From Pseudomonadota bacterium (lineage in GTDB: Bacteria > Desulfobacterota > Desulfobacteria > Desulfobacterales > RPRI01): a stretch of 64,000 nt of DNA. A program made the translations under genes and the position numbers. Shown here piece by piece: positions 20,280-64,000 of the stretch (positions are counted from its first letter, which is position 1; each line of letters opens with the position of its first letter). The notes beneath the pieces were generated by a model, which saw nothing but the letters and a program-made list of their open reading frames with translations, did not search any database and was not told where the DNA came from. The stretch is taken from the NCBI GenBank assembly GCA_018901125.1, contig JAHIFE010000178.1, forward strand, positions 4,989-68,988, given 5' to 3'.

Positions 20280-21527
20280 ATGAATATAATTGAACTGAAG
20301 AATAAAAAGATTAAGGAGCTGACTCAGCTTGCTAAAAGCCTGAATATTGAAGGTGCAGCCGGCATGCGAAAACAAGAGCTCATTTTTGCTTTGATCCAGA
20401 GCCAAATAGAAAAAAATGGTTTGATCTATGGGGAAGGCACACTTGAGATTCTTCCTGACGGTTTTGGCTTTTTAAGAGCTCCAAGCTATAACTATTTGCC
20501 TGGTCCCGATGATATCTATGTTTCCCCATCACAGATAAGGCGCTTTAACTTAAGAACCGGTGATATTGTATCAGGCCAGATCAGGCAGCCCAAAGAATCT
20601 GAGCGTTATTTCGCCTTGCTGAAAGTAGAAGCTGTAAACCACGAAGATCCTGAAATTTCAAGAGATAAAATACTTTTTGATAATCTGACGCCTCTTTATC
20701 CAAACAGGAAAATAAACATAGAAAATAGTCCTGAAAATTATTCCATGCGGATAATGGATTTAATGATTCCAATAGGATTTGGCCAGAGAGGTCTGATTGT
20801 TTCACCCCCCAGGGCCGGTAAGACAATGTTGTTACAAAATATTGCAAACAGTGTTATAGAAAGCCATAAAGAAGTTGTGCCATTTGTGCTTCTTATCGAC
20901 GAGCGACCGGAAGAGGTTACCGATATGGAGCGTAATGTTAAGGCGGAAGTCATAAGTTCAACTTTTGATGAACCAGCCGAAAGGCACGTACAGGTTGCTG
21001 AAATGGTAATTGAAAAAGCTAAAAGACTGGTTGAGCATAAAAAAGATGTTATTATTCTTTTAGATAGCATTACAAGACTTGCCAGGGCTTATAATTCCGT
21101 TATGCCTCCCAGCGGAAAGATCCTGTCCGGCGGTGTTGATTCAAATGCTCTTCAGCGCCCTAAACGTTTTTTTGGCGCAGCTAGAAATATTGAGGAAGGG
21201 GGAAGCCTTACCATTATTGCAACCGCTCTTGTTGATACCGGAAGCCGTATGGACGAAGTTATTTTTGAGGAATTCAAGGGAACCGGCAATATGGAGATAC
21301 AGCTCGACAGAAAGCTTGCCGATAAACGTGTATTTCCTGCTATTGACATAAAAAAATCGGGTACAAGAAAAGAAGAACTTCTTCTGTCCGAAGAAACTTT
21401 AAACAGAGTATGGATTTTGAGGAAATTTCTTTCTTCATTAAATCCAACAGACAGTCTCGAATTTCTTCTTGAAAAAATGCGCGGAACAAAGAATAATGAA
21501 CAATTTCTTAATTCCATGAATGCATAA
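20280..21527 (+). CDS. rho: Transcription termination factor Rho
   Basis: [50 protein letters not shown]; 415 aa from ATG 20280. Confidence 0.99.
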
Positions 21528-47242: not shown

Positions 47243-48799
47243 ATGATCTATAATGATTTTTTGATAAATGTCGCTATTACTATTTCACTTAGCGTTCTGT
47301 ATGGAATTTTTATTCGCAAAATAGACGATACTACTACAACCGGTAAAATTGCAGCAGGAATTATTTTCGGTATTGCTGCGATTATAGTAATGTTTAACCC
47401 TTTTCACTATATGCCCGGAATTATTTTTGACAGTCGTTCCATTGTAATAAGCGCAGCCGGTCTTTTTGGAGGTTTTATTCCGGCAATAATCGCCTCAAGT
47501 ATTGCAGCAGCTTACCGTTTGCACATCGGAGGAGCAGGAACCTTGATGGGGGTTTCTGTTATATTCGTATCAGCAGCTATAGGACTTGGATATAAAAGTC
47601 TTGCAGTAAAGAAACCTGAATTTTTACGCCCGGTGTATTTTTATGTTTTTGGAGTTACAGTACATTTATTCATGCTTTTATTGATGCTTACACTACCCGG
47701 AGCATTGGTGTTTGATGTAATAAAAACTGTTGCCGTTCCCGTAATGATAATATTTCCGTTAACAACATTGCTGCTATGCATTTTATTAAGGGATCATAAA
47801 ATTCAAACAGAAACCAGTAAGGCTCTGGTTAAGAGCGAAGAACAATATCGATTAATAGTTGAGACAGCAAACGAGGGAATCTGGAGGATGGACCGCAATT
47901 CCAAAACAGTATATATGAATAGAATGGTTTCTGCCATGCTTGGATATACTGAAGCTGAAATTGCAGGCAGACCGGTTTCCGATTTCATGTTCGAAGAAGA
48001 TCTGGTTGATCATAAATCAAGGATGAACTGCCGTTACACTGGCAAAGCAGATATATACGAAAGAAAACTTAAAAGAAAAGACGGCTCCATTCTCTGGGCC
48101 GGTATTTCGGCTATCCCTCTTTTCGATGAAAATAAACGGTTTGACGGGTCTTTTGGTATGCTTACAGATATAACCTCCCGCAAAGAAGCAGAAGAAGAGT
48201 TAAAGCAGACCACGGAAAAACTGAGAACAGGGCTTATCGGAACAATTAATGTTATATCGCTTACCATAGAAACCCGTGATCCATATACTTCCGGCCACCA
48301 GAAAAGAGTTTCAAAGCTTGCGCGATTAATAGCACAGGAAATTGGATTACCAAATGATACTGTGGAAAACATAAGAATGGCAGGTGTTGTTCATGATATT
48401 GGAAAGATGTCCGTTCCTTCTGAAATATTAAGCAAACCAAGCAGGCTGACGGATATAGAAATGCGCCTTATCAAAACTCATCCGGCGTCAGGGTATGAAA
48501 TTCTAAAGGATGCCTGCCTGCCTTATCCGATAGCAGAGATAGTTCTTCAGCACCACGAAAGAATAGACGGATCAGGATACCCGAACTGTTTAGAAGGAGA
48601 GCAGATTCTTCTTGAAGCAAAAATAATCAGCGTTGCCGATGTAGTCGAAGCTATATCGTCTCATCGTCCTTACAGGCCTGCCTTTGGTGTGGATATAGCT
48701 CTTGAGGAGATCAGGAAGAACAGGGGCATACTCTATGATGCCAAAGTTGTGGATGCATGCCTGCGGCTGTTTAATGAGAAAGGATTTAAGTTTGAATAA
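47243..48799 (+). CDS. 5TM-5TMR_LYT - PAS - HD-GYP c-di-GMP phosphodiesterase
   Basis: FDSRSIVISAAGLFGG membrane sensor, PAS, RDPYTSGHQKRV, HDIGK, HHERIDGSGYP. Confidence 0.92.
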   Translation: MIYNDFLINVAITISLSVLYGIFIRKIDDTTTTGKIAAGIIFGIAAIIVMFNPFHYMPGIIFDSRSIVISAAGLFGGFIPAIIASSIAAAYRLHIGGAGTLMGVSVIFVSAAIGLGYKSLAVKKPEFLRPVYFYVFGVTVHLFMLLLMLTLPGALVFDVIKTVAVPVMIIFPLTTLLLCILLRDHKIQTETSKALVKSEEQYRLIVETANEGIWRMDRNSKTVYMNRMVSAMLGYTEAEIAGRPVSDFMFEEDLVDHKSRMNCRYTGKADIYERKLKRKDGSILWAGISAIPLFDENKRFDGSFGMLTDITSRKEAEEELKQTTEKLRTGLIGTINVISLTIETRDPYTSGHQKRVSKLARLIAQEIGLPNDTVENIRMAGVVHDIGKMSVPSEILSKPSRLTDIEMRLIKTHPASGYEILKDACLPYPIAEIVLQHHERIDGSGYPNCLEGEQILLEAKIISVADVVEAISSHRPYRPAFGVDIALEEIRKNRGILYDAKVVDACLRLFNEKGFKFE

Positions 48800-54658: not shown

Positions 54659-55149
54659 AAAGCAAGCCCTCGTAGCACTAAATTTGTTTGGTCGGCATAT
54701 ATCAAAATACCAGACTGCTGGTAAATCCAAGCCTGTTAAAAAGCTTTATATGAACCGGCAACAATAATTTATACAACTTTCATGCCAAGAGCATTGCAAC
54801 AATTACTTCAATATTTACATATAGTTTTGACAGGATATCGAAATGCAACCGTCAAATAAATGGCACTATGCCCAGCTTGGGTTTATTAAACATAACTTTG
54901 CATCCATTCATAAACAGATAGCGGTTTGAAATATCAAAACATATTTCATTGTATATTTGGCATGTTAAGGAAAGGAACGGCCGTTATTTTTGCGGTTTGC
55001 ATACGAACTTACCCACCGATGTTGCTTCAGGCACATATTATGCAAATCTCAGGATATTATATTAATTGTTTGACTTAACTATCATAAAATGTTAAAAAAA
55101 ACTTATCAGTTCTATAAACACTACTATAAGCATCAACGGATACTATGCC

Positions 55150-56595
55150 GTGAAATCACCTTGGTTTAACCTTTGGTTTTCGGAGGGCATTATAAAACCG
55201 CAAATGCAATCGGGAAATACTATCCAACCGCTGAAATCTTCACCTTTCCGCAGGTTCGCAAAAGCGCTTGCAGAAAAATTCAAGATACAAATCTTCGCAG
55301 AAGCCGTTCAGGACGGCTTCGATGGTGCGGTATTATATGCCGATATTATTCAGAAATCATCCCAGCCATTGTTGGTTGCTAATCCGGACGCAACAATAAT
55401 ATCCTGCAATGAAGCTTATCTGAAAATCATGGGCTATACAAAAGAAGAATTTGAGAAAATCGAATGTGCTATAGACTTCACTCCGCCGGAGTGGCAGGAA
55501 ATCACCAGGGATAGCATGGAAGAGTTGCACCGTACAGGCCGTCCGGTAAGGTATGAAAAAGAATATATAAGAAAAGACTCAAAGCGTTTTCCGGTCGAAA
55601 TATTTCTTCATTTTATGAAAGATGAAAATGGCCTGCTGTATTGTTATTACGCTTTTACTACAGATATTACACAACGAAAGCTTGCGGAAGCGGCAATGAT
55701 ACAGGCAAAACTGCGTTATCGCAATTTGTTTGAAGAAGCTCCGGTTATGTATGTTATCACCCGCAACCAGGGTGGCGTGCCTGTTATTGTTGACTGCAAT
55801 GCGCTTTTTTTGAGCACTATGGGATACACAATTTCCGAAGTAATGGAGCATCCTCTGGGCGATTTTTACACGCCGGAATCTTGCGCCGAAATGCTGGAAG
55901 GCGGCGGTTATCAGCGTGCATTGTCGAACCGGTTTACAAGTGAAGAACGCAAGCTTTTAACACGGGATGGCAAAATTAAAGAAACATTGATGAGAGCCGT
56001 TCCGGAAAGTGATGCTGATGGCAACGTAACGGGAACGCGGGCAATGTTTATCGACGTAACTGCGCAGAAGCAGGCAGAAAGACAATTGCTGGCTTTGTCG
56101 TTGCGGCAGGAGGCTATCCTGTCGGCTATTCCCGATATTGTAATCGAAGTGGATGTTGATAAAGTATATACTTGGGCAAACGAAGCCGCTAAGGAATTTT
56201 TCGGCCCAGACGTTATAGGAAAAGAAGCTTCTTTCTATTATGCAGATGAGCAGGACACTTACAATCTGGTGAAACCGCTTCTAAGTGGTATCGAGGATTC
56301 AATTTATCTTGAAAGCCTCCAAATAAGAAAAGATGGCGAGAAACGTCTGCTGGCCTGGTGGTGCCGGGCGTTAAAGGATGAACATGGAAATGTGAGGGGC
56401 GCGCTTTCCACAGCACGCGACATCACCGAGCAAAGGCAGGCAAAAATACAGCTCGGCAGTAAAATCGAGGAGCTGCAGCGCTGGAATAAAGCAGTCATGG
56501 GCCGCGAAATGCGCGTTATTGAACTAAAGCGCGAGGTAAACGAACTTTTGGTAAAATCAGGGCAGCCAAAGCGTTATAATGATAATGAGCAGTGA
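55150..56595 (+). CDS. Three-PAS-domain protein without a catalytic output domain
   Basis: Three PAS/PAC repeats ending in DITQRK / DVTAQK / DITEQR, then the coiled tail ELQRWNKAVMGREMRVIELKREVNELL. Start uncertain. Confidence 0.8.
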   Translation: MKSPWFNLWFSEGIIKPQMQSGNTIQPLKSSPFRRFAKALAEKFKIQIFAEAVQDGFDGAVLYADIIQKSSQPLLVANPDATIISCNEAYLKIMGYTKEEFEKIECAIDFTPPEWQEITRDSMEELHRTGRPVRYEKEYIRKDSKRFPVEIFLHFMKDENGLLYCYYAFTTDITQRKLAEAAMIQAKLRYRNLFEEAPVMYVITRNQGGVPVIVDCNALFLSTMGYTISEVMEHPLGDFYTPESCAEMLEGGGYQRALSNRFTSEERKLLTRDGKIKETLMRAVPESDADGNVTGTRAMFIDVTAQKQAERQLLALSLRQEAILSAIPDIVIEVDVDKVYTWANEAAKEFFGPDVIGKEASFYYADEQDTYNLVKPLLSGIEDSIYLESLQIRKDGEKRLLAWWCRALKDEHGNVRGALSTARDITEQRQAKIQLGSKIEELQRWNKAVMGREMRVIELKREVNELLVKSGQPKRYNDNEQ

Positions 56596-59500
56596 TGACA
56601 TGTACAATAAAACATCTACTGAAAATACTTCCAAACTTCAAAACCCATCCTCTTCCCGCTGGATTGCGATAGCTCCTTTTTTATTGCTGTTTATGCTCAT
56701 TATTATAGCTGCTACCGAATATTTATATATCAGGCAGCAATATCGGGCAGCCAAAAAAGCGGCGCAAACAGAAATTTCTTCTGTAGCCAATCTTAAAGCA
56801 GGCCAGATTGAAAACTGGTATAAAGATCGTATAAAAGATGCCGAGATTGTTTCGAATAATATAATACTTCAAATGAAAGTGCAGCTTTTATTTTCCAACC
56901 CCGACAACGCAGATCTTAAGAAAGAAATACTTCAATGGATGGTAACTCAGCAAAAATATTATGAATACAAGCTGATGGTGCTTTATGACTCTGAGGGCAG
57001 GTCGCTGCTGTCTGTTCCTGAAGGCCTGGCCGCTTTTGATATTTCGCACAACCAATATTTTCAGGCTGCTTTGCGATCAAAAACTATTTTGCCGATTGAT
57101 CTGCACAAGGATCATGATTCCTGGAAATATATTCATCTTAGTATATATATTCCGATCAGAAATAATATTACGATCAGAAATAAACAGGGCGCAAATGATT
57201 TGGCGAAAGGGGCCTGGATGATACAGATTGATCCCTATCAGCTTTTGTATCCTCTGGTTCAAACATGGCCATCAGCAAGACAAAGCGCTGAAACTCTTCT
57301 TGTGCGGCGCGAAGGCGATGATGTCCTGTTTTTAAATGAACTGCGACACCGCCAGAATACAGCACTTGAGTTGCGGTTACCAATTTACCCCGATCGGCGG
57401 CTTCCTGCAGCTATGGCTTTAACGGGCTATGAAGGTATTATTGAGGGTCTTGACTACCGGAATGAGCAGGTACTTGCCGATGTGAGAAAGATAAAAGGGA
57501 CAAACTGGTTTATGGTAGCAAAGATTGATCGCAAAGAAATTTACGCCGGTATGTACCAACAGATATTGCTAAACGGGATCGCGCTTCTTGCCCTGCTTTT
57601 ATCCGCATCACTTGCAATAAGACTGCTGACAAGACAACACGATAACCGGATGCTCAAAGAACAGCTTGCCGCAGAGCAGGAGCGAAACGCCGCCATAGAA
57701 GCTCTTGCAGAAAGCAGGCAAAAAACCGCATTTTTTGCAGATGTGATCGAAAAATCATCGCAGCCTTTTCTTGTTGGTTATCCGGACGGTCGAATCGGCA
57801 TGTTTAACGATGCTTTTACAAAATTGCTTGGTTACAGCAAAGAGGAGATTGAAAAAATAAACCAGGCTCATCATTTTGCTTCAATACGGTCTGCGGATGA
57901 AGTGTCTAAACTGCAGGAATTAAATCGCACAGGTCAACCTGTCCGGTATGAAAAAGAATACATTAGAAAAGACGGCATGTACGCCCCAATCGAACTGTTG
58001 GTGCATCTGGTAAGAAAGGAAAATGGCCAGCCGGACTACTATTATGCTTTTATAACCGATATCACAGAGCGCAAGCTTGCGGAAAAAGCCGTTCTGGAAA
58101 GCAAAGAACGCCTGCAACTGGCACTTACGGCGGCTAATCATGGAATGTATGATCTTGATATAGAAACCGGCGAGGCCAAAACCAATCCTGAATATGCAAT
58201 GATTCTTGGCTATGATCCGGCCACCTTTGTGGAAACAAACGACAAATGGATCGAGCGTCTCCATCCGGATGACCGCGAACGCGTTTCCAAAACATACAGG
58301 GCATACATCGAGGGCAAACTTCCAACCTATCAGGTAGAATTTCGGCAACGAACAAAATCCGGCGATTGGAAATGGATTCTTTCTTTAGGAAAGATTCTTG
58401 AATATAGCGTTGAAGGCAAGCCGCTTCGTATGCTGGGGACGCATACCGACATCACCGAACGAAAACAGGCGGAAGAAAAAATCAGTAACAGCGAAACTCT
58501 TCTTAAACAAACCCAGAGATTAAGCCATGTTGGAGGTTGGGAGTATGATGTGGAAAGCAGGAGCATGTTATGGAGTGATGAAGTCTATAATATCCACGGC
58601 GTATCAAAAGACTATGATCCAAGCAATCCGGACTGGCATATAAACTTTTTCACTCCTGAAAACCGGGAAAAAATAAACAAGGCATTTATGCAGGCCCTCG
58701 AATACGGCGAGCCCTATGACCTTGTTTTGCAGTCAATAAAGGCAGATGGAACGCTGATATGGGTGCGGACGAGCGGACAGGCCGAACGCAAAGAAGGCAA
58801 GATAACCCGTGTGTTCGGCAATATAATGGATATCACGGAACGCATGCAGGCAGAGGAGCAGATGCTTGCCGCTAACGAAGAAATACGGATGCTGCTAAAA
58901 GATGCCGAGCAATCGCGCCTGGCTCTATTAAGCGTTGTTGAGGACCAGAAGGAGGCACAGAGGCAAATCCAGAAATTAAACGCCGAACTGGAGCAGCGCG
59001 TGCAGGAACGTACAGCCAGGCTCGAAACGGTAAATAAGGAACTTGAGGCATTCAGCTATTCCGTTTCTCATGATTTAAGGTCTCCGCTGCAGCACATAAC
59101 CGGTTTTGCAGAACTGCTGAACAAACGAGCGTACCAATCCCTTGATGAAAAGAGCAGACACTATATAAAAATAATAAAGGATTCTACTGGCCGGATGGGA
59201 GCGCTGATTGACGATCTTTTGTCATTTTCGCGAATGGGCCGTGCCGATATGATGAGAAAGAATGTAAACCTTGACAATATAGTAAAGGCAGTATTGGACG
59301 ATTTAAAGACAGAAACAAAAGAAAGAAATATCGAATGGAAAATCAATCCGCTTCCGGAAGTTACCGGAGATCCAGCCATGCTGAAACTTGTTTATGTCAA
59401 CCTTATATCCAATGCAGTTAAGTTTACAAAAGAGTGCGAAAAGGCTGTTATCGAAATAGGAAGTACATTCCGGAATAAAGGTGAAATATTTTTCTATGTA

Positions 59501-59791
59501 AAGGACAATGGAGCAGGTTTTGATATGAAATACGTTGATAAACTCTTTGGCCTTTTCCAGCGCCTTCACCGCTCCGAAGATTTTGACGGCACCGGCCTTG
59601 GTCTGGCCAATGTCCGCAGAATTATATACCGCCACGGAGGAAAAACCTGGGCAGAAGGAGAGGTGGACAAAGGAGCTACGATTTATTTCAGCTTGCCTGG
59701 GGAACAGGGATCAGGGATCGGGGATCGGGGATCGGGGATCGGGGGACAGGGAACAGGGGATCAGGATGTCGGTATCTTGAGGGAAGAGTAG
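56579..59791 (+). CDS. Membrane Cache-PAS-PAS-PAS sensor histidine kinase (phytochrome/CphA-type H-box) with a repeat-derived C-terminal tail
   Basis: Two TM, three PAS, FSYSVSHDLRSPL, NLISNAVKF, DNGAGFD, GTGLGL; tail GEQGSGIGDRGSGIGGQGTGDQ encoded by a 7-bp repeat. Confidence 0.93.
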   Translation: MIMSSDDMYNKTSTENTSKLQNPSSSRWIAIAPFLLLFMLIIIAATEYLYIRQQYRAAKKAAQTEISSVANLKAGQIENWYKDRIKDAEIVSNNIILQMKVQLLFSNPDNADLKKEILQWMVTQQKYYEYKLMVLYDSEGRSLLSVPEGLAAFDISHNQYFQAALRSKTILPIDLHKDHDSWKYIHLSIYIPIRNNITIRNKQGANDLAKGAWMIQIDPYQLLYPLVQTWPSARQSAETLLVRREGDDVLFLNELRHRQNTALELRLPIYPDRRLPAAMALTGYEGIIEGLDYRNEQVLADVRKIKGTNWFMVAKIDRKEIYAGMYQQILLNGIALLALLLSASLAIRLLTRQHDNRMLKEQLAAEQERNAAIEALAESRQKTAFFADVIEKSSQPFLVGYPDGRIGMFNDAFTKLLGYSKEEIEKINQAHHFASIRSADEVSKLQELNRTGQPVRYEKEYIRKDGMYAPIELLVHLVRKENGQPDYYYAFITDITERKLAEKAVLESKERLQLALTAANHGMYDLDIETGEAKTNPEYAMILGYDPATFVETNDKWIERLHPDDRERVSKTYRAYIEGKLPTYQVEFRQRTKSGDWKWILSLGKILEYSVEGKPLRMLGTHTDITERKQAEEKISNSETLLKQTQRLSHVGGWEYDVESRSMLWSDEVYNIHGVSKDYDPSNPDWHINFFTPENREKINKAFMQALEYGEPYDLVLQSIKADGTLIWVRTSGQAERKEGKITRVFGNIMDITERMQAEEQMLAANEEIRMLLKDAEQSRLALLSVVEDQKEAQRQIQKLNAELEQRVQERTARLETVNKELEAFSYSVSHDLRSPLQHITGFAELLNKRAYQSLDEKSRHYIKIIKDSTGRMGALIDDLLSFSRMGRADMMRKNVNLDNIVKAVLDDLKTETKERNIEWKINPLPEVTGDPAMLKLVYVNLISNAVKFTKECEKAVIEIGSTFRNKGEIFFYVKDNGAGFDMKYVDKLFGLFQRLHRSEDFDGTGLGLANVRRIIYRHGGKTWAEGEVDKGATIYFSLPGEQGSGIGDRGSGIGGQGTGDQDVGILREE
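59701..59764 (+). repeat. 7-bp tandem array GGA(T/A)C(G/A)G, about 9 units
   Basis: GGAACAG GGATCAG GGATCGG x4 GGGACAG GGAACAG GGGATCAG. Confidence 0.92.
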
Positions 59792-59797
59792 TAATTT

Positions 59798-59890
59798 ATG
59801 CATATTAATAGTTATCAGGTTATTGCGGCGTGGCAGAAATCAATAAGAAAGAATGTTATAAAATGTTTTCCCTGCCCCCCGTTCTCTTGA
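59798..59890 (+). pseudogene. Internally deleted four-helix-bundle gene (30-aa remnant)
   Basis: MHINSYQVIAAWQK matches the start (MHIKNYQDLEVWQK) and SIRKNV matches the end (LQKSIKKNI) of the intact gene at 60402-60767. Confidence 0.8.
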
Positions 59891-59895
59891 TCCCT
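59868..59895 (-). repeat. Inverted heptamer arm closing the remnant cassette
   Basis: TTCCCTGCCCCCCGTTC matches the reverse complement of 59737-59753 at 15/17 positions. Confidence 0.75.
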
Positions 59896-59910
59896 ATTTA
59901 AGGAAAATCA

Positions 59911-60354
59911 ATGAATATTTCATTAAATAAAATTTTGTTGGTAGAAGACAATATAAATGATGTGGAACTGGCCATGGAAGCTTTTTCAGAAAACAACATT
60001 GCAAACACGGTTGATGTAGTCCGTGATGGGGAAGAAGCTCTAGAATATCTTAAATACAAAGGTAAATTTTCATCACGATCTTCAGGCAATCCCGTGGTTA
60101 TTTTTTTAGATATCAATCTTCCCAAAATAAACGGGATTGAAGTGCTTAAAGCTATCAGAACTGATCACAAGCTGAAATTAATACCCGTGGTTATCTTTAC
60201 ATCCTCCCGCGAGGAAAAAGATCTTTTTGCAAGCTATAGTCTCGGTGTAAATGCTTATGTTGTAAAACCCATAGATTTCAATGAATTTGTAATAGCAGTC
60301 AGGTCGCTTGGATTATTCTGGGCAATCATCAATGAGCCTCCGCCGGAATTGTGA
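59911..60354 (+). CDS. Single-domain response regulator (Rcp1-type)
   Basis: ILLVEDN..D, FLDINLPKINGIEVL, IPVVIFTSS, YVVKP, FWAIINEPP. Confidence 0.93.
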   Translation: MNISLNKILLVEDNINDVELAMEAFSENNIANTVDVVRDGEEALEYLKYKGKFSSRSSGNPVVIFLDINLPKINGIEVLKAIRTDHKLKLIPVVIFTSSREEKDLFASYSLGVNAYVVKPIDFNEFVIAVRSLGLFWAIINEPPPEL

Positions 60355-60361
60355 GAAGAAA

Positions 60362-60391
60362 ATCGGGTGTCAGGGTCCAGGGGGCAGATAG
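60362..60391 (+). repeat. Upstream heptamer arm of the intact four-helix-bundle cassette
   Basis: CGGGTGT CAGGGTC CAGGGGG CAGATAG directly after the REC stop codon and before SD GGAG. Confidence 0.65.
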
Positions 60392-60401
60392 GAGTGTAAA
60401 T

Positions 60402-60767
60402 ATGCATATCAAAAATTATCAGGATCTTGAAGTGTGGCAGAAAGCTATGGATCTGGTAATTATGTGCTATAAGATAAGTGGTACATTTCCCAAGAATGAA
60501 GTATATGGCCTATCAAGCCAGTTACAGCGTGCTGCCGTATCGATACCTGCAAATATTGCTGAAGGCAGGGAAAGGCGCTACAGTAAAGAGTTCCTTCAAT
60601 ATTTATCAATCGCCTATGGCTCTTTGGCCGAAGTGGAAACGCACATTCATATAGCCAAACGGTTAGGCTATATCAACGAAAACCAATTCAACGAAACGCT
60701 GGGAAAAACATCTGAGATAGGGAGAATGTTAAATGGCCTGCAGAAGTCAATTAAAAAAAATATTTAA
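60402..60767 (+). CDS. Four-helix-bundle protein (23S rRNA intervening-sequence protein / bAvd-like family)
   Basis: YQDLEVWQKAMDL, FPKNEVYGLSSQLQRAAVSIPANIAEG, FLQYLSIAYGSLAEVETH, LGYI, MLNGL; 121 aa from ATG 60402. Confidence 0.95.
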   Translation: MHIKNYQDLEVWQKAMDLVIMCYKISGTFPKNEVYGLSSQLQRAAVSIPANIAEGRERRYSKEFLQYLSIAYGSLAEVETHIHIAKRLGYINENQFNETLGKTSEIGRMLNGLQKSIKKNI

Positions 60768-60778
60768 CAAGCGTTTTG

Positions 60779-60813
60779 CCCATGACGCCCGATCCCTGTT
60801 CCCTGGCAACTGA
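60779..60813 (-). repeat. Downstream inverted heptamer arm of the intact cassette
   Basis: CCCATGA CGCCCGA TCCCTGT TCCCTGG CAACTGA; TGACGCCCGAT pairs with ATCGGGTGTCA (60362-60372) with one G-U. Confidence 0.72.
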
Positions 60814-60817
60814 CTAT

Positions 60818-62194
60818 ATGGAACAAAACCTTAATATACTAAACCTTGAAGACAGTCCTAATGATTCTGAGCTGATAAAGGAAATTCTTTTTGATGCAGG
60901 AATTGAATGCGATATTATTCGTGTGGAAAATGAAAAAGACTATCTTTGGGCAATCGAAAATCATAATATAGATATTATACTTGCAGATTACACGCTTCCT
61001 TTATTTGACGGCCTGTCTGCGCTGAAAATTGCGCTGAAAAAATGTCCTGATGTGCCTTTTGTTTTTGTTACCGGTACGCTGGGCGAGGAGATTGCGGTTG
61101 AATCTTTAAAAAGCGGCGCAACAGATTATGTCCTTAAAGACGGGCTTCTGCGGCTTGTCCCGGCAGTTCAAAAGGCTTTAAGGGAAGTAGAATTTAAAAT
61201 AAAGCGAAAGCAAAGTGAAAATGCCTTGCGCGAATCGGAGGAAAAATACCGGGAGCTGGTAGAAAGCATCAGCAGTATTCTTTATACGGTAGATAACAAA
61301 GGAATTGTTACATATATCAGTCCATCGGTGCAGGCATTGATAGGATATAGTTCATCTGAAATTATCGGGCGTTCTTTATTTGTACTTATCTATCCGGAAG
61401 ATATTTCTTATATTGAGAAACAGTTTAAAAAAAGGCTATCAAACAGCCTTGAACCCAGCGAATACAGGATCGTTAAAAAATCAGGAGAAACAATATGGGT
61501 GACTTCTTCAAGCCGCGAGATAATCAGAGAAAAAAAGCTTGTCGGCTTACGCGGCCTGATTGTTAATATAGATGAGGATAAAAAATTTAAAGAAAAACTG
61601 AATGAAAGCCTCGATAGACTCCAAAATGCCAACAGAGGCATTATACAGGCCATGGCATTGACGATAGAAACACGCGACCCTTACACAGCAGGCCATCAGA
61701 GGCGTGTGGCCTGTCTTGCCCGGGCAATTGCCACAGAAATGAATTTGTCTGAACAGCAGATAGAGGGACTCAATATGGCAGGATCAATACACGATCTTGG
61801 CAAGCTGTCGGTTCCTGCCGATATTTTAAGCAAACCATCGAGATTAAGCGAAATTGAATACGAGCTTATAAAGATTCATCCTGAAGCAGGTTATAATATC
61901 TTAAAAGATATAGAATTTCCATGGCCTGTTGCACAAATCATATTACAGCACCACGAAAGGATGGATGGCTCAGGATATCCCAAAGGTTTAATGGGAGAAG
62001 ATATTATCATGGAATCCCGGATATTGAGTGTAGCCGATGTTGTAGAAGCCATATCGTCCCACCGTCCTTATCGTTCTGCTCAGGGAGTTGACAAAGCTCT
62101 GGAGGAAGTTGCCGACAAAAAAGGCATCCTCTATGATCCGGTGGTGGTTGATGCCTGTCTGAGAGTTTTTAAGGAAAAAGGATTTAAGTTCTGA
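60818..62194 (+). CDS. REC-PAS-HD-GYP c-di-GMP phosphodiesterase
   Basis: ILNLEDS, ILADY; PAS; RDPYTAGHQRRV, HDLGK, HHERMDGSGYP. The true start is MEQN (60818); the longer track start runs through the repeat arm. Confidence 0.93.
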   Translation: MEQNLNILNLEDSPNDSELIKEILFDAGIECDIIRVENEKDYLWAIENHNIDIILADYTLPLFDGLSALKIALKKCPDVPFVFVTGTLGEEIAVESLKSGATDYVLKDGLLRLVPAVQKALREVEFKIKRKQSENALRESEEKYRELVESISSILYTVDNKGIVTYISPSVQALIGYSSSEIIGRSLFVLIYPEDISYIEKQFKKRLSNSLEPSEYRIVKKSGETIWVTSSSREIIREKKLVGLRGLIVNIDEDKKFKEKLNESLDRLQNANRGIIQAMALTIETRDPYTAGHQRRVACLARAIATEMNLSEQQIEGLNMAGSIHDLGKLSVPADILSKPSRLSEIEYELIKIHPEAGYNILKDIEFPWPVAQIILQHHERMDGSGYPKGLMGEDIIMESRILSVADVVEAISSHRPYRSAQGVDKALEEVADKKGILYDPVVVDACLRVFKEKGFKF

Positions 62195-62359
62195 CGTCTT
62201 TGTACAATTTTCTCTGCTTCGCTGCGCTTCATTGCTCAAGCTTTGTGCACCTTTCATATGAAGCCTTTATAGAAGACACCAAAATATATTGAAGTTAGCA
62301 TCATGTCCAGATCAAGTCGCAAGTAACGTTTTTATACAAGTACATCAGGATCTATAAAT

Positions 62360-62402
62360 TGAATAGTAAGCAACATATCGATATTCGTTGTTCACTGTTC
62401 GA
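62360..62402. repeat. Heptamer hairpin at a gene junction
   Basis: GAATAGTAAGCAAC (62361-62374) pairs with GTTGTTCACTGTTC (62387-62400) with G-U pairs and one mismatch; same unit family as 44695-44743. Confidence 0.62.
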
Positions 62403-62420
62403 TCAGCAGGAGATTGTGCG

Positions 62421-64000
62421 ATGGAAAACATACCGGTTGAAAAATCAAGTAGCAGCGCCGGGCGCGTCATGGTTGTTGATGACGAAGTCGGGATAATGAG
62501 TTCTATTTGTGAATTGCTGTCCGATGAAGGTTATGAAACAACAGGGTTTTGTGCTGGCTCCGAAGCTATTGAACTTCTGAAAAAACAGGAATTTGATCTT
62601 CTCATAACCGATCTGATGATGCCGGGTATGGATGGAATAGATGTTCTTCGCAAAGGGATAGAAATTGATCCCAATCTTGTTTGCATTATCATGACCGGAT
62701 ATGGAACAGTGCAGACTGCTGTTGAAGCAATGAAGACAGGCGCTTTCGATTATATTCTGAAACCTTTCAAGCCTTCAGGCTTGTTGCCTATCCTTACCCG
62801 CGCCATGCAGGTGCGCAGCCTGCAGGATGAAAATATGCAGTTGCGTGAAACCATCGCTATCCATGAACTGGGAAAAGCCATTGCCTTTTCTTCCGATCTG
62901 AATTCAATTATGAATATGGTTGCCGATGCCGCTCTTTTGCAGTGCAAAGCAGATGAGGTATCTATTATGCTGCCGACTGCAGACGGCAAAGAGCTTTATG
63001 TAGCTGTTGTGCGCGGCAGCGGATGTGCGGAAAAGGTCGGGATACATATACCTTTAGAGCAGGGTATTGCCGGCTGGGTGGCACGCAACAAAGAACCCAT
63101 GGTATTGCGGGGAGAAGTTAATGACCCGGGTATGGCCCCTGTCAAACCGCGTAGTGATATCCACACCGCAGTTTCTATGCCGATGATGTCAAGCGGTAAA
63201 CTGGTTGGTGTGCTGAATGTAAATATAACTCAAAATCACCGCCAGTTTAAAATGGGACAGTTGAAGGTTCTCGGAATTCTTGTCAGTATCATTTCACCGA
63301 TTTTGGAAAAAATGCAACTGTACTTACAGATACGTGAGGGTGAGGAAAAATACCGTTTGATCTTTGAAAACATACTCGATGGAATCTATCAGCGTTTGCC
63401 GGATGGAAGAATAATTGCTGCCAATCCGGCGCTTGCCCGTATATTTGGTTACGATACCCCCCAAGACCTTATGGCAAATATTACTGATTATTTTAACCAG
63501 ATATGCATAAATTGCGATGATTGTGCCGAATTCAACCGTATCATGGGCATATATGGCGAAGTTCGGGATTTTGAATATCCCGTCTATCGCAAAGACAAAA
63601 CTAAAGCATGGGTATCTGACAATGTACGTGCCGTAAAGGATAATAAGGGTATTTTGCTCTACTATGAAGGGATTCTTTCCGACATAAGCAAAAGGAAACA
63701 AGCGGAAGAACAGCTGTTAAAGAGCATTGAAGATACCGTTCGGGCAATGGCTATGATAGTGGAAAAACGGGACATGTATACCGCGGGCCACCAGGAGAGG
63801 GTGGCGAACCTGGCCGTAGCTATTGCTGAAGAAATGAAGCTTTCCGAAAGACAGATCAAGGGGCTAAGAATGGCCGGTATCATTCATGATATCGGCAAAC
63901 TGAATGTGCCATCGGAAATTCTTACCAAACCTGCAAAACTTAATTATATTGAATTTGAACTTGTAAAAATGCATGCTGAAGCAGGCTATAACATTCTTGT
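62421..64000 (+). CDS. REC-GAF-PAS-HD-GYP protein, partial: 3' end runs off the right edge
   Basis: Absent from the ORF track (no stop). ATG 62421 after AGGAGA; VMVVDDE, LITDLMMP, YILKPF; GAF (QGIAGWVA, VGVLNV); PAS; RDMYTAGHQERV, HDIGK. Confidence 0.92.
   Translation, partial: MENIPVEKSSSSAGRVMVVDDEVGIMSSICELLSDEGYETTGFCAGSEAIELLKKQEFDLLITDLMMPGMDGIDVLRKGIEIDPNLVCIIMTGYGTVQTAVEAMKTGAFDYILKPFKPSGLLPILTRAMQVRSLQDENMQLRETIAIHELGKAIAFSSDLNSIMNMVADAALLQCKADEVSIMLPTADGKELYVAVVRGSGCAEKVGIHIPLEQGIAGWVARNKEPMVLRGEVNDPGMAPVKPRSDIHTAVSMPMMSSGKLVGVLNVNITQNHRQFKMGQLKVLGILVSIISPILEKMQLYLQIREGEEKYRLIFENILDGIYQRLPDGRIIAANPALARIFGYDTPQDLMANITDYFNQICINCDDCAEFNRIMGIYGEVRDFEYPVYRKDKTKAWVSDNVRAVKDNKGILLYYEGILSDISKRKQAEEQLLKSIEDTVRAMAMIVEKRDMYTAGHQERVANLAVAIAEEMKLSERQIKGLRMAGIIHDIGKLNVPSEILTKPAKLNYIEFELVKMHAEAGYNIL

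Follow-up and report, generated by a model that had tools for sequence, protein, structure and literature searches.

Intervening sequences (IVS) of 23S rRNA that carry an open reading frame are among the closest known systems to the element analysed here. Examples are those of Leptospira, where the encoded protein family was first found, and of Coxiella burnetii (PMC4990558). In these IVS, the ORF encodes a four-helix-bundle (4HB) protein of the PF05635 family and lies in the loop of a stem, which is formed by terminal inverted repeats. In Coxiella, tandem heptamers (GACAGAT x2-3) sit directly upstream of the start codon and their number varies between strains, the element is about 430-450 nt long, the stem comprises 28 bp and the IVS is excised by RNase III. 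The Coxiella ORF, however, is reported as decaying and untranslated. These elements have long been suspected to be mobile, although no transposase is present.

A second related group are the GGGNATC-type heptamer simple-sequence repeats of Xanthomonas and Nostoc (Rehm et al. 2015, PMC4692102) and the heptanucleotide intergenic elements of Geobacter metallireducens (PMC2700814). They prefer gaps between co-oriented genes close to the stop or start codon, their copy number varies, and convergent inverted pairs have been noted (70-75 per Xanthomonas genome). In the passages searched, these papers treat the repeats as quadruplex-forming or regulatory DNA, and neither intervening sequences nor four-helix proteins were found mentioned in either of them. 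Furthermore, the accessory protein bAvd of diversity-generating retroelements (DGR; PDB 4DWL, 8UB7) shares the four-helix-bundle fold, is small and basic, forms a pentamer and binds RNA and a reverse transcriptase (RT). Finally, in the REP/REPIN elements with their RAYT, and in MITEs, one protein gene goes with many short hairpin-forming repeats of a cognate sequence scattered between genes, and gene-less derivatives outnumber the gene.

A heptamer-flanked PF05635 gene inside a signalling operon

The window analysed is a stretch of 64,000 nucleotides from a Pseudomonadota bacterium (GTDB lineage Desulfobacterota, Desulfobacterales, RPRI01; assembly GCA_018901125.1, contig JAHIFE010000178.1, positions 4,989 to 68,988). 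The original prediction described a 121-aa four-helix-bundle gene between a receiver-type regulator and an HD-GYP gene, flanked by a purine-rich 7-bp array upstream and its pyrimidine-rich reverse complement downstream, including an 11-bp stem with one G-U pair. This observation is confirmed. The insert, however, had been placed at 60362-60813, whereas the comparison with the near-empty site of a same-genus genome (G007) shifts it by seven bases (Table 1).

Table 1. Features of the cassette, its upstream sibling and the host operon (window coordinates).
Position	Strand	Feature	Basis
56579-59791	+	PAS/HisKA/HATPase histidine kinase, host gene upstream	Pfam
59699-59768	+	Upstream arm of a second, gutted cassette: 9-10 units of GGGATCA/GGGGATC, including GGGGATC x4 in a row, translated as the last 24 residues of the kinase	TRF: period 7, 9.3 copies, score 67-85; kinase ORF runs through it to the TAG at 59789-59791; the G007 kinase stops after about 2 units
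59699-59895		Whole gutted cassette, one spacer upstream of the full copy	
59798-59860	+	Remnant of a 4HB gene: first ~14 codons joined in frame to the last ~8 codons at a shared GCAGAA	59797-59844 is 79% identical to 60401-60448; 59833-59857 is 80% identical to 60740-60764; the matches overlap on GCAGAA
59868-59895	+	Downstream arm of the gutted cassette (TTCCCTG CCCCCCG TTCTCTT GATCCC)	88% complementary over 17 nt to 59737-59753
59911-60354	+	Stand-alone receiver-domain gene, host gene between the two cassettes	PF00072; orthologues 72-81% identical in relatives
60355-60806	+	Whole insert: upstream arm, Shine-Dalgarno, 4HB gene, downstream arm	Alignment with G007 (REC-TAA-caactgactatt-ATG-HD-GYP): 452 extra bases between the REC stop (60352-60354) and caactgactat (60807-)
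60362-60387	+	Upstream purine-rich arm, about 3-4 degenerate heptamers (ATCGGGT GTCAGGG TCCAGGG GGCAG)	73% identical to the clear GGGGATC array at 59724-59749; pairs with 60780-60793
60362-60372 / 60783-60793		11-bp stem, ATCGGGTGTCA / TGACGCCCGAT, one G-U	Extended by a repeat search to 14 nt at 86% complementarity
60390-60394	+	AGGAG Shine-Dalgarno of the 4HB gene, 7 nt before the ATG	Read from the sequence
60402-60767	+	121-aa four-helix-bundle protein gene (23S rRNA IVS protein family)	Profile searches and predicted structure (see text)
60779-60813	+	Downstream pyrimidine-rich arm (CCATGAC GCCCGAT CCCTGTT CCCTGGC AACTGAC); the last unit, 60807-60813, is also present at the G007 site	Repeat search and alignment; relative G013 keeps only this arm, fused to a truncated receiver gene
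60818-62194	+	REC-PAS-HD_5 (HD-GYP) gene, host gene downstream; no Shine-Dalgarno in the 11 nt before its ATG	PF13487/PF00072/PAS; orthologues in 12 genus genomes

The encoded protein is a clear member of its family. It matches PF05635 (E=4.9e-43; 146 bits, cut-off 33.8) over profile positions 1-106 of 106, TIGR02436 with 138 bits (cut-off 24) and NF008911 with 149 bits (cut-off 137). An AlphaFold model (pLDDT 92) displays four helices. The closest solved structures are 2GSC (TM 0.86, rmsd 1.4 Å) and 2RLD (TM 0.82), both deposited with five chains like the Avd pentamer, followed by bAvd (TM about 0.75-0.8 to 4DWL and 8UB7) at only 11-12% identity. This confirms the structural relation to bAvd that had been proposed. 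Nevertheless, the protein is not recognized as an Avd, since it scores 42 bits against a cut-off of 80 for NF033474 and 38.2 bits against 40 for PF22296. The ORFs within about 4 kb on either side all encode signalling proteins, no transposase, RT, template repeat or variable repeat is nearby, and the two RT genes (RVT_1) of the genome are located on other contigs. A DGR was therefore rejected.

The arms of this copy are short and degenerate, about 3-4 units NCAGGGN upstream and about 5 units CCCTGNN downstream, and are not reported by TRF at score 30. The stem closes the minimum-free-energy RNA fold of the whole insert, which has z = -1.7. The pairing of the arms is far better than that of equally spaced random pairs in the window (2 of 3000), but only marginally better than that of dinucleotide shuffles keeping the purine-rich and pyrimidine-rich composition (-35.1 versus -27.8 +/- 3.9 kcal/mol, 88 of 2000 shuffles as good, p about 0.04). 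In an arm-by-arm matrix of 11 related cassettes, the arms of this copy pair no better with each other than with those of other cassettes. The arms are eroded, and relatives show that they are homologues of clear arrays. The stem of 11-14 bp compares with about 20-30 bp in the stems around the ORF of 23S rRNA IVS and with about 25 bp in the hairpin of the 216-nt gutted sibling (z = -2.1), and related cassettes reach scores of 27-36.

No Rfam family matches positions 55000-64000 at E<=1, and no PADLOC model matches, so that neither a known RNA family nor a defence system was recognized. No promoter-like site was found in or just upstream of the cassette. The only terminator-like match (60689-60701) lies within the gene on the minus strand, and the counts do not exceed shuffles, so the cassette is probably co-transcribed with its neighbours.

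Gain, replacement and decay of cassettes in relatives

At this one junction, relatives are found in very different states. The distant genome G010 carries the same cassette, G002 a gene-less hairpin of the same type, G013 a lone downstream arm and G007 a near-empty site, while G005, G006 and G001 carry other heptamer types with 44-45%-identical 4HB genes or none. At least four heptamer types, three of them seen with their own 4HB gene, occupy the junction across the genus. These types are intermingled on the operon gene tree, so gains or replacements were repeated. It has to be noted that the near-empty site of G007 keeps one arm-like unit (CAACTGA), and it is probably a secondary loss rather than a pre-insertion state.

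Cassettes decay by internal deletion into gene-less hairpins and then lone arrays. The sibling upstream of the receiver gene is such an intermediate, a similar deletion derivative is present in G006, and a gene-less hairpin of the same type lies at another junction, where it is present only in this genome. The array of the sibling has the GGGGATC/GGGATCA unit reported for Xanthomonas and Nostoc and overlaps the kinase stop region, and it therefore fits the described class of tandem GGGNATC units within about 50 bp of a stop or start between co-oriented ORFs. The arms of the full copy are degenerate versions of it.

Of the 27 4HB loci inspected in the genus, nearly all have an array upstream and its reverse complement downstream, each subfamily with its own unit; besides NCAGGGN, arrays of CGAATAT and CGTGGAT occur with other 4HB proteins of the genus. 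Strong-armed cassettes are also carried by cultivable bacteria, for example Xanthomonas campestris (XCC0516) and a Flavobacterium. Proteins 66-83% identical to this one lie in other genera in at least 8 unrelated contexts, some under other phylum labels, with the same NCAGGGN/NCCCTGN unit. Among different-context pairs, protein identity predicts the sharing of arm 6-mers (rho 0.28, 0 of 2000 permutations). In 77 cross-phylum loci, picked by two conserved motifs of this subfamily, 65% have an inverted-arm score of at least 12 in comparison to 0.3% of 770 positional controls, and a period-7 excess is seen in 71% versus 6.5%. These ungapped scores replaced a ranking of all 7,744 ORFs of the genome by 6-mers shared between upstream and reverse-complement downstream flanks, where AT-rich flanks gave too much noise and only one 4HB gene ranked near the top. 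Pairing of TRF period-7 arrays within 3 kb confirmed that the gene-sized (350-450 nt) inverted pairs are the 4HB loci and revealed several empty hairpins, although most arrays are solo.

The gene is under purifying selection (dN/dS 0.12-0.16). Between this genome (G000) and G015, which carries the cassette at a different site, the synonymous divergence of the 4HB gene (pS 0.38 [0.26-0.51]) is well below that of three host genes (0.65-0.68 [0.56-0.76]), so it moved between lineages. In contrast, G000 and G010, with the cassette at the same site, show only a modest deficit (0.59 versus 0.69-0.79) with overlapping intervals. The distribution of the clade-A 4HB gene, the presumed cognate of these arrays, is patchy within the order (6 of 151 genomes, 5 of 109 genera).

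No direct repeat is present at 60355 / 60806 in comparison to the G007 site, hence no target-site duplication was seen. The only ORF of the element is the 4HB gene, and no candidate enzyme acting in trans was identified. The closest copy at a different site is 83% identical at protein level and identical proteins from many samples always have the same neighbours, so no recent jump was caught.

Genomes with an intact clade-A gene have more hits to GGGNNCN x3, which would fit an action in trans. In the genus the counts are 34, 27, 26 and 9 against a median of 4 (Mann-Whitney p=0.004), and in the order the median is 10.5 against 1 (p=0.008). This association is only suggestive, since the pattern is broad and also catches sister unit families (GGGTTCG, GGGTGCT). 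Exceptions are G003 with 22 hits and no clade-A gene, and G047 with 363 hits from sister heptamer types.

Interpretation of the cassette

The original prediction, in which arms plus ORF are a minimal mobile or RNA-processed element, an mRNA analogue of an IVS that inserts at stop/start junctions without breaking operons, is only partly supported. Three conditions had been named in advance that would have spoken against it, and none applies: the gene is not fixed at this position, since a near-empty site exists, the paralogues do have heptamer flanks, and the complementarity of the arms exceeds controls, although narrowly against composition-preserving shuffles. An insertion that leaves operons unbroken is too clean a picture. 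The array of the sibling is translated as a tail of the kinase, one relative lost the 3' two-thirds of the receiver gene together with the cassette, and another lost the whole receiver gene. The processing part rests on analogy to rRNA, and the stem of this copy is short for RNase III.

The best explanation, held with reasonable but not high confidence, is that the region is one copy of a widespread kind of small gene cassette: a PF05635 gene with its own ribosome-binding site, bracketed by an array of short repeats (period 7 here) and its reverse complement, carried at the gap between two genes of an operon and probably transcribed with them. Full-text literature searches found no paper linking PF05635 genes outside rRNA with flanking heptamer arrays. 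The analysis itself establishes that gene plus arms enter and leave junctions as a unit, that each 4HB subfamily travels with its own repeat unit, that the protein is kept by purifying selection, that cassettes decay stepwise and that the cassette has crossed between lineages. Beyond this, it is only inferred that the basic (pI 9.2) Avd-like protein recognizes its cognate array as single-stranded or hairpin nucleic acid and thereby promotes spread or retention of arrays carrying that unit, in cis and in trans. Likewise inferred are an integration via host recombination or replication at hairpins or pre-existing arrays instead of a transposase, and that a long arm pair would be an RNase III substrate in RNA, which for the eroded arms of this copy is doubtful.

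In comparison to the rRNA elements, this cassette shares the protein family, the ORF in the loop, the tandem heptamers and the size, but it lies between two protein-coding genes and not in helix 9, 25 or 45 of 23S rRNA, and its gene is under selection. In contrast to the descriptions of the Xanthomonas, Nostoc and Geobacter repeats, gene and arms co-vary and move together. The logic resembles RAYT with REP/REPIN elements, as hairpin counts track the presence of the gene. However, the protein is not a Y1 (HUH) transposase and has no known catalytic motif, the arms are tandem arrays and not a single palindrome, no target duplication is seen and the gene itself sits inside the hairpin.

A broader reading is possible, although less likely than not. 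Here, PF05635 proteins would be sequence-specific readers of short tandem repeats, and each subfamily with its cognate inverted array would form a minimal selfish element of a new kind without a transposase, colonizing transcribed gaps, both operon junctions and 23S rRNA helices, across bacteria and some archaea. The gene-less hairpins and lone arrays that litter many genomes, including the G-quadruplex repeats of Xanthomonas and Nostoc, would then be non-autonomous or decayed derivatives, mobilized or maintained in trans by the protein.

The function of the very large 23S rRNA IVS protein family, the origin of rRNA intervening sequences and the meaning of the abundant heptamer repeats of many bacterial genomes have been open questions for some thirty years. 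This locus ties the three together and makes them testable, since it offers a protein under selection with its presumed cognate repeat, a gutted sibling next door, a graded series of filled, gene-less, lone-arm and near-empty states at one junction in close relatives, and evidence for transfer between lineages. If the protein reads its own repeat, this would be a new class of minimal mobile element and a new source of operon-junction variation, since arrays add tails to proteins and deletions remove neighbouring genes. It could also be a possible toolkit of small repeat-specific nucleic-acid binders.

Alternative explanations

It is unlikely, but not excluded, that the heptamer arrays are an independent, host-level feature of gene junctions, i.e., G-quadruplex or hairpin elements affecting transcript stability or termination, as described for GGGNATC repeats in Xanthomonas and Nostoc. 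The 4HB gene would merely be tolerated or preferentially retained inside them and its protein would have an unrelated cellular role. In line with this, arrays greatly outnumber 4HB genes (about 110 period-7 arrays against 6 genes in this genome), some array families have no cognate gene here, and many arrays are single-armed and sit just after a stop or before a start codon. Furthermore, GGGGATC is the unit reported as quadruplex-forming and enriched between co-oriented ORFs (PMC4692102). However, this would not explain why each subfamily keeps the same unit across unrelated sites and phyla, the excess of inverted arms over controls, the gutted gene remnants inside hairpins, or why array counts track the cognate gene.

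Slightly less likely still is an element acting mainly in the transcript, where the arm hairpin would be cut by RNase III, thereby separating the upstream and downstream cistrons and releasing the 4HB mRNA, and spread would occur by an RNA intermediate with an RT supplied in trans. The shared protein family, the heptamers in the stem of the excised Coxiella IVS, the probable co-transcription, the hairpin of the sibling, the fold match to bAvd inside the DGR RT ribonucleoprotein (Avd-like proteins are RT partners in DGRs) and the two RT genes elsewhere in the genome would fit. On the contrary, the short stem and the overall fold of this copy (z = -1.7), the lack of RT, template and variable repeats nearby, the Avd score below cut-off and the missing Rfam match argue against it.

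An ordinary, vertically inherited small gene, with repeats arising in place by slippage and only deletions among relatives, would fit the same-junction copy in G010, whose divergence is compatible with vertical descent, the apparent losses in G007 and G013 and the constant neighbours of identical proteins, but is already disfavoured and very unlikely in view of the several intermingled heptamer types at this one junction, the G015 copy at a different site with about half the synonymous divergence of host genes, the patchy distribution in the order, and proteins 70-79% identical under several phylum labels while host orthologues within the genus fall to about 50%.

The four-helix-bundle gene, its arms and a gutted sibling

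The small gene within the insert (positions of this and all other features of the locus are collected in the table below) encodes a protein which matches PF05635 '23S rRNA-intervening sequence protein' over the whole profile (E=4.9e-43) as well as TIGR02436 'four helix bundle protein' and NF008911, both above cut-off. In contrast, it scores below the cut-offs of both Avd models (PF22296, 38.2 bits against 40; NF033474, 42 against 80). An AlphaFold model built on 28 homologues is confident (pLDDT 92) and consists of four helices. The nearest solved structures to this model are 2GSC from Xanthomonas campestris (TM 0.86, 42% identity) and 2RLD, both of which are deposited with five chains, followed by bAvd alone and bAvd inside the DGR reverse-transcriptase ribonucleoprotein (TM 0.75-0.8, 11-12% identity). 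The four-helix-bundle (4HB) protein is basic with a pI of 9.2.

No promoter-like or terminator-like site lies in the cassette on the coding strand. The single terminator-like match is located within the gene on the minus strand and does not exceed shuffles. Furthermore, neither an Rfam family nor a PADLOC model matches.

Features of the locus and their positions in the window
Feature	Position	Strand	Description
PAS histidine kinase	56579-59791		Neighbouring gene
Array of the gutted sibling	59699-59768		9-10 GGGATCA/GGGGATC units, just upstream between the kinase and the receiver gene
Translated array region	59699-59791		Array read as the last 24 residues of the kinase, a Gly/Ser/Asp-rich tail (GSGIGDRGSGIGGQGTGDQDVGILREE)
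5' gene remnant	59797-59844		79% identical to the first 48 nt of the 4HB gene
3' gene remnant	59833-59857		80% identical to the last 25 nt of the 4HB gene; overlaps the 5' remnant on GCAGAA
Pyrimidine arm of the sibling	59868-59895		Follows the gene remnant
Receiver gene	59911-60354		Stand-alone
Insert	60355-60806		Set by alignment with the orthologous junction; no target duplication
Stem	60362-60372 with 60783-60793		11 bp, one G-U; extends to 14 nt at 86% complementarity
4HB gene	60402-60767	+	121 aa; AGGAG 7 nt before the ATG
REC-PAS-HD-GYP gene	60818-62194		Neighbouring gene

The 11-bp stem described in the original prediction is real and closes the minimum-free-energy fold of the insert. 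However, the arms are weak, since only 3-5 degenerate units are present per side and these are not called by TRF. The duplex energy is -35.1 kcal/mol in comparison to -27.8 +/- 3.9 for dinucleotide shuffles, of which 88 of 2000 are as good, and much of the pairing therefore comes from purine-rich against pyrimidine-rich composition. Against equally spaced random pairs in the window, only 2 of 3000 reach this energy. Among 11 related cassettes, the arms of this copy pair no better with each other than with foreign arms (score 8 against 8-12), although the set as a whole prefers its own partner (15.5 against 11.8; 75 of 20000 permutations). So this is an old copy with an intact gene and eroded arms.

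A gutted sibling is present next door. Here, a clear heptamer array is followed by the two ends of a 4HB gene, which represents an in-frame internal deletion at a 6-bp microhomology. The 216-nt element folds into a ~25-bp hairpin (z = -2.1). The orthologous kinases of the two related genomes G007 and G009 stop after about two units of the array, showing that arrays can add or change C-termini of host proteins. The remnant begins MHI(N)(S)YQ, like the full copy (MHIKNYQ) and unlike relatives (MGI.., MRI.., MTI..), which suggests an intragenomic relationship between the two copies.

The same junction in related genomes

Orthologous operons were found in 12 genomes of the genus (designated by G numbers, G000 being the genome of the window), and the gap between the receiver and the HD-GYP gene (REC|HD-GYP) was found in very different states.

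States of the REC|HD-GYP gap in genomes of the genus
Genome	State
G000, G010	Same-type cassette with intact gene (76% identity between the two)
G002	Same-type arms with a short loop, no gene
G013	Only the downstream arm, fused to a receiver gene truncated after ~37 codons
G007	'TAA caactgactatt ATG', i.e. empty apart from one arm-like unit
G009	Whole receiver gene deleted
G005	Cassette with CGTGGAT-type arms and a 44%-identical 4HB gene
G001	CGTGGAT-type arms without a gene
G006	Cassette with CGAATAT/CGTACAT arms and a 45%-identical gene; also a clade-A pseudogene cassette one junction upstream and a deletion derivative of the second type
G012, G008	Remnants of a further (GGCGNGA) type; in G008 mixed with two other arm types

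On the HD-GYP tree the types are intermingled; for example, G001 (C-type) is sister to G002 (A-type), and G008 is sister to G010. Several independent insertions or replacements are needed under any history, whereas G007 is best read as a loss. In two genomes, deletions centred on the cassette removed host sequence: in G009 (locus L019, 4040-4110) the whole receiver gene was lost, while in G013 (locus L020, 2265-2400) its 3' two-thirds were lost together with the 4HB gene at a gCCCaTGA microhomology. The spacer of G008 (locus L015, 1340-1500) is a composite of arms from three different repeat families in a row, which suggests successive insertions and truncations at one junction.

A second junction, on contig C38 of the window's own genome, shows the same turnover. 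Here, G000 alone has a gene-less A-type hairpin, G007 and G009 have a 14-nt spacer, and G013 has a different array.

Association of gene and arms, selection and arrays without genes

Of the 27 4HB loci inspected in the genus, nearly all have an array upstream and its reverse complement downstream, with a unit specific to the subfamily; one subfamily has period 8. Clade A, meaning proteins at least 65% identical to the one studied here, always carries NCAGGGN/NCCCTGN. This holds at REC|HD-GYP (G000, G010), at X|REC (G006), after a hybrid kinase (G015) and at another site in G014. Outside the genus, clade-A genes lie between DUF2065 and queA, Lactamase_B and a binding protein, FlK and a CoA ligase, leuD and leuB, as well as Tail_P2_I and DUF4159. 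In the leuC-leuD-leuB operon of metagenome contigs (loci L070-L079, about 700-870 and 2000-2372), a small PF13366 (PDDEXK_3) gene sits at one junction and a clade-A 4HB cassette at the next, and in one variant the PDDEXK_3 gene lies after leuB instead. Two kinds of small junction cassettes coexist there.

Among 566 pairs in different contexts, protein identity predicts the sharing of arm 6-mers (rho 0.28; 0 of 2000 permutations). Furthermore, in 77 loci from many phyla (43-71% identity), 65% have an inverted-arm score of at least 12 in comparison to 0.3% of 770 positional controls, and 71% show a period-7 excess against 6.5%.

The dN/dS of the 4HB gene is 0.12-0.16. Between G000 and G015, whose cassette lies at a different site, the synonymous difference in the 4HB gene is 0.38 [0.26-0.51], while three host genes give 0.65-0.68 [0.56-0.76]. 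The value of 0.38 is what host genes show between G000 and its nearest relatives (0.32-0.45), and the cassette lineage is therefore younger than the split of the two genomes. For G010, where the cassette is at the same site, the deficit is smaller (0.59 against 0.69-0.79). Hundreds of database proteins are 70-79% identical and carry several phylum labels, whereas host orthologues within the genus fall to about 50%. In the order, the clade-A gene is present in 6 of 151 genomes and 5 of 109 genera. On the contrary, identical proteins sampled 13-20 times always have the same neighbours, which speaks against recent movement.

The genome of the window has a strong excess of period-7 arrays, with 31 at a TRF score of 50 or more against 2 each for periods 6 and 8, and about 110 are found at a lower threshold. 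However, it has only 6 PF05635 genes. A-type arrays occur at about 20 sites, mostly single-armed and next to stop or start codons. Counts of GGGNNCNx3 are higher in genomes with an intact clade-A gene: in the genus 34, 27, 26 and 9 against a median of 4 (p=0.004), and in the order a median of 10.5 against 1 (p=0.008). G000 has 34 hits, while its three closest relatives, which lack the gene, have 2-9. Since there are exceptions and the search pattern is broad, this is suggestive only.

Interpretation, known repeats and further elements

The Coxiella IVS has a 28-bp stem and two or three tandem GACAGAT heptamers before the S23p start; it is excised by RNase III and has been proposed to be mobile (PMC4990558). 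GGGNATC repeats have been described in Xanthomonas and Nostoc, including 70-75 convergent pairs per Xanthomonas genome, as quadruplex-forming elements between co-oriented genes, and a word search of that paper found no mention of intervening-sequence or 23S terms (PMC4692102). Heptanucleotide elements of Geobacter are listed as putative regulatory sites (PMC2700814). Full-text literature searches found no description of PF05635 cassettes with heptamer arms in operons.

Taken together, the original observation of a four-helix-bundle gene held between complementary heptamer arms is confirmed. Its interpretation is supported only in part: the reading as a mobile cassette is supported at the comparative level, while an RNA processing like that of an IVS would be an inference by analogy and is unlikely for this eroded copy. 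The most likely account is a selfish or hitch-hiking gene-plus-repeat unit whose protein would read its own repeat, which would spread by host recombination or replication at hairpins or arrays and which decays into gene-less hairpins and lone arrays. Here, the analysis shows that the gene with its arms enters and leaves junctions as a unit, that each 4HB subfamily travels with its own repeat unit, that the protein is kept by purifying selection, that cassettes decay by internal deletion and that the cassette has crossed between lineages, whereas the recognition of the repeat by the protein and the route of spread are inferred.

Several A-type arrays of the own genome (C12:7808-7850, C38:1133-1155, C144:2357-2390, C78:20342-20400 and C175:~21300-21375(-)) are followed by a recurring ~25-nt motif, ..GG(C/T)TCATGAGTT(G/T)GT(A/G)GGTTC.. 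In C175 this motif begins a 93-aa ORF (MADKLVSSLVHKVKEPLSKRF...), while elsewhere only a few codons remain. It may be a second cargo family or a conserved loop. Another short dispersed repeat, gcagagatYgKccaaaatggggcgttttgaaactggc, recurs near cassettes, namely downstream of the 4HB gene of G007 (locus L052, contig C5) and on C175 of the own genome at about 21100-21200(-).

On contig C221 of the own genome, outside the window at about 47500-47560, a CRISPR array (repeat gtttcaatccacgcgcccgcatggggcgcgac) holds a spacer made of heptamer units, CAGGGTTCAGGGTTCAGGGT, and a weak PF05635 hit lies about 5 kb away on the same contig. Contig C75 (976-6062) carries very long period-7 arrays, up to about 35 copies of TTTCACG/TTTCCCG/GTTTCAC, in several blocks within 6 kb, for which no cognate 4HB gene was found in the genome. 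Finally, two reverse-transcriptase (RVT_1) genes are present in the own genome at C88:503-1126 and C80:3827-4492, neither of them near the window.
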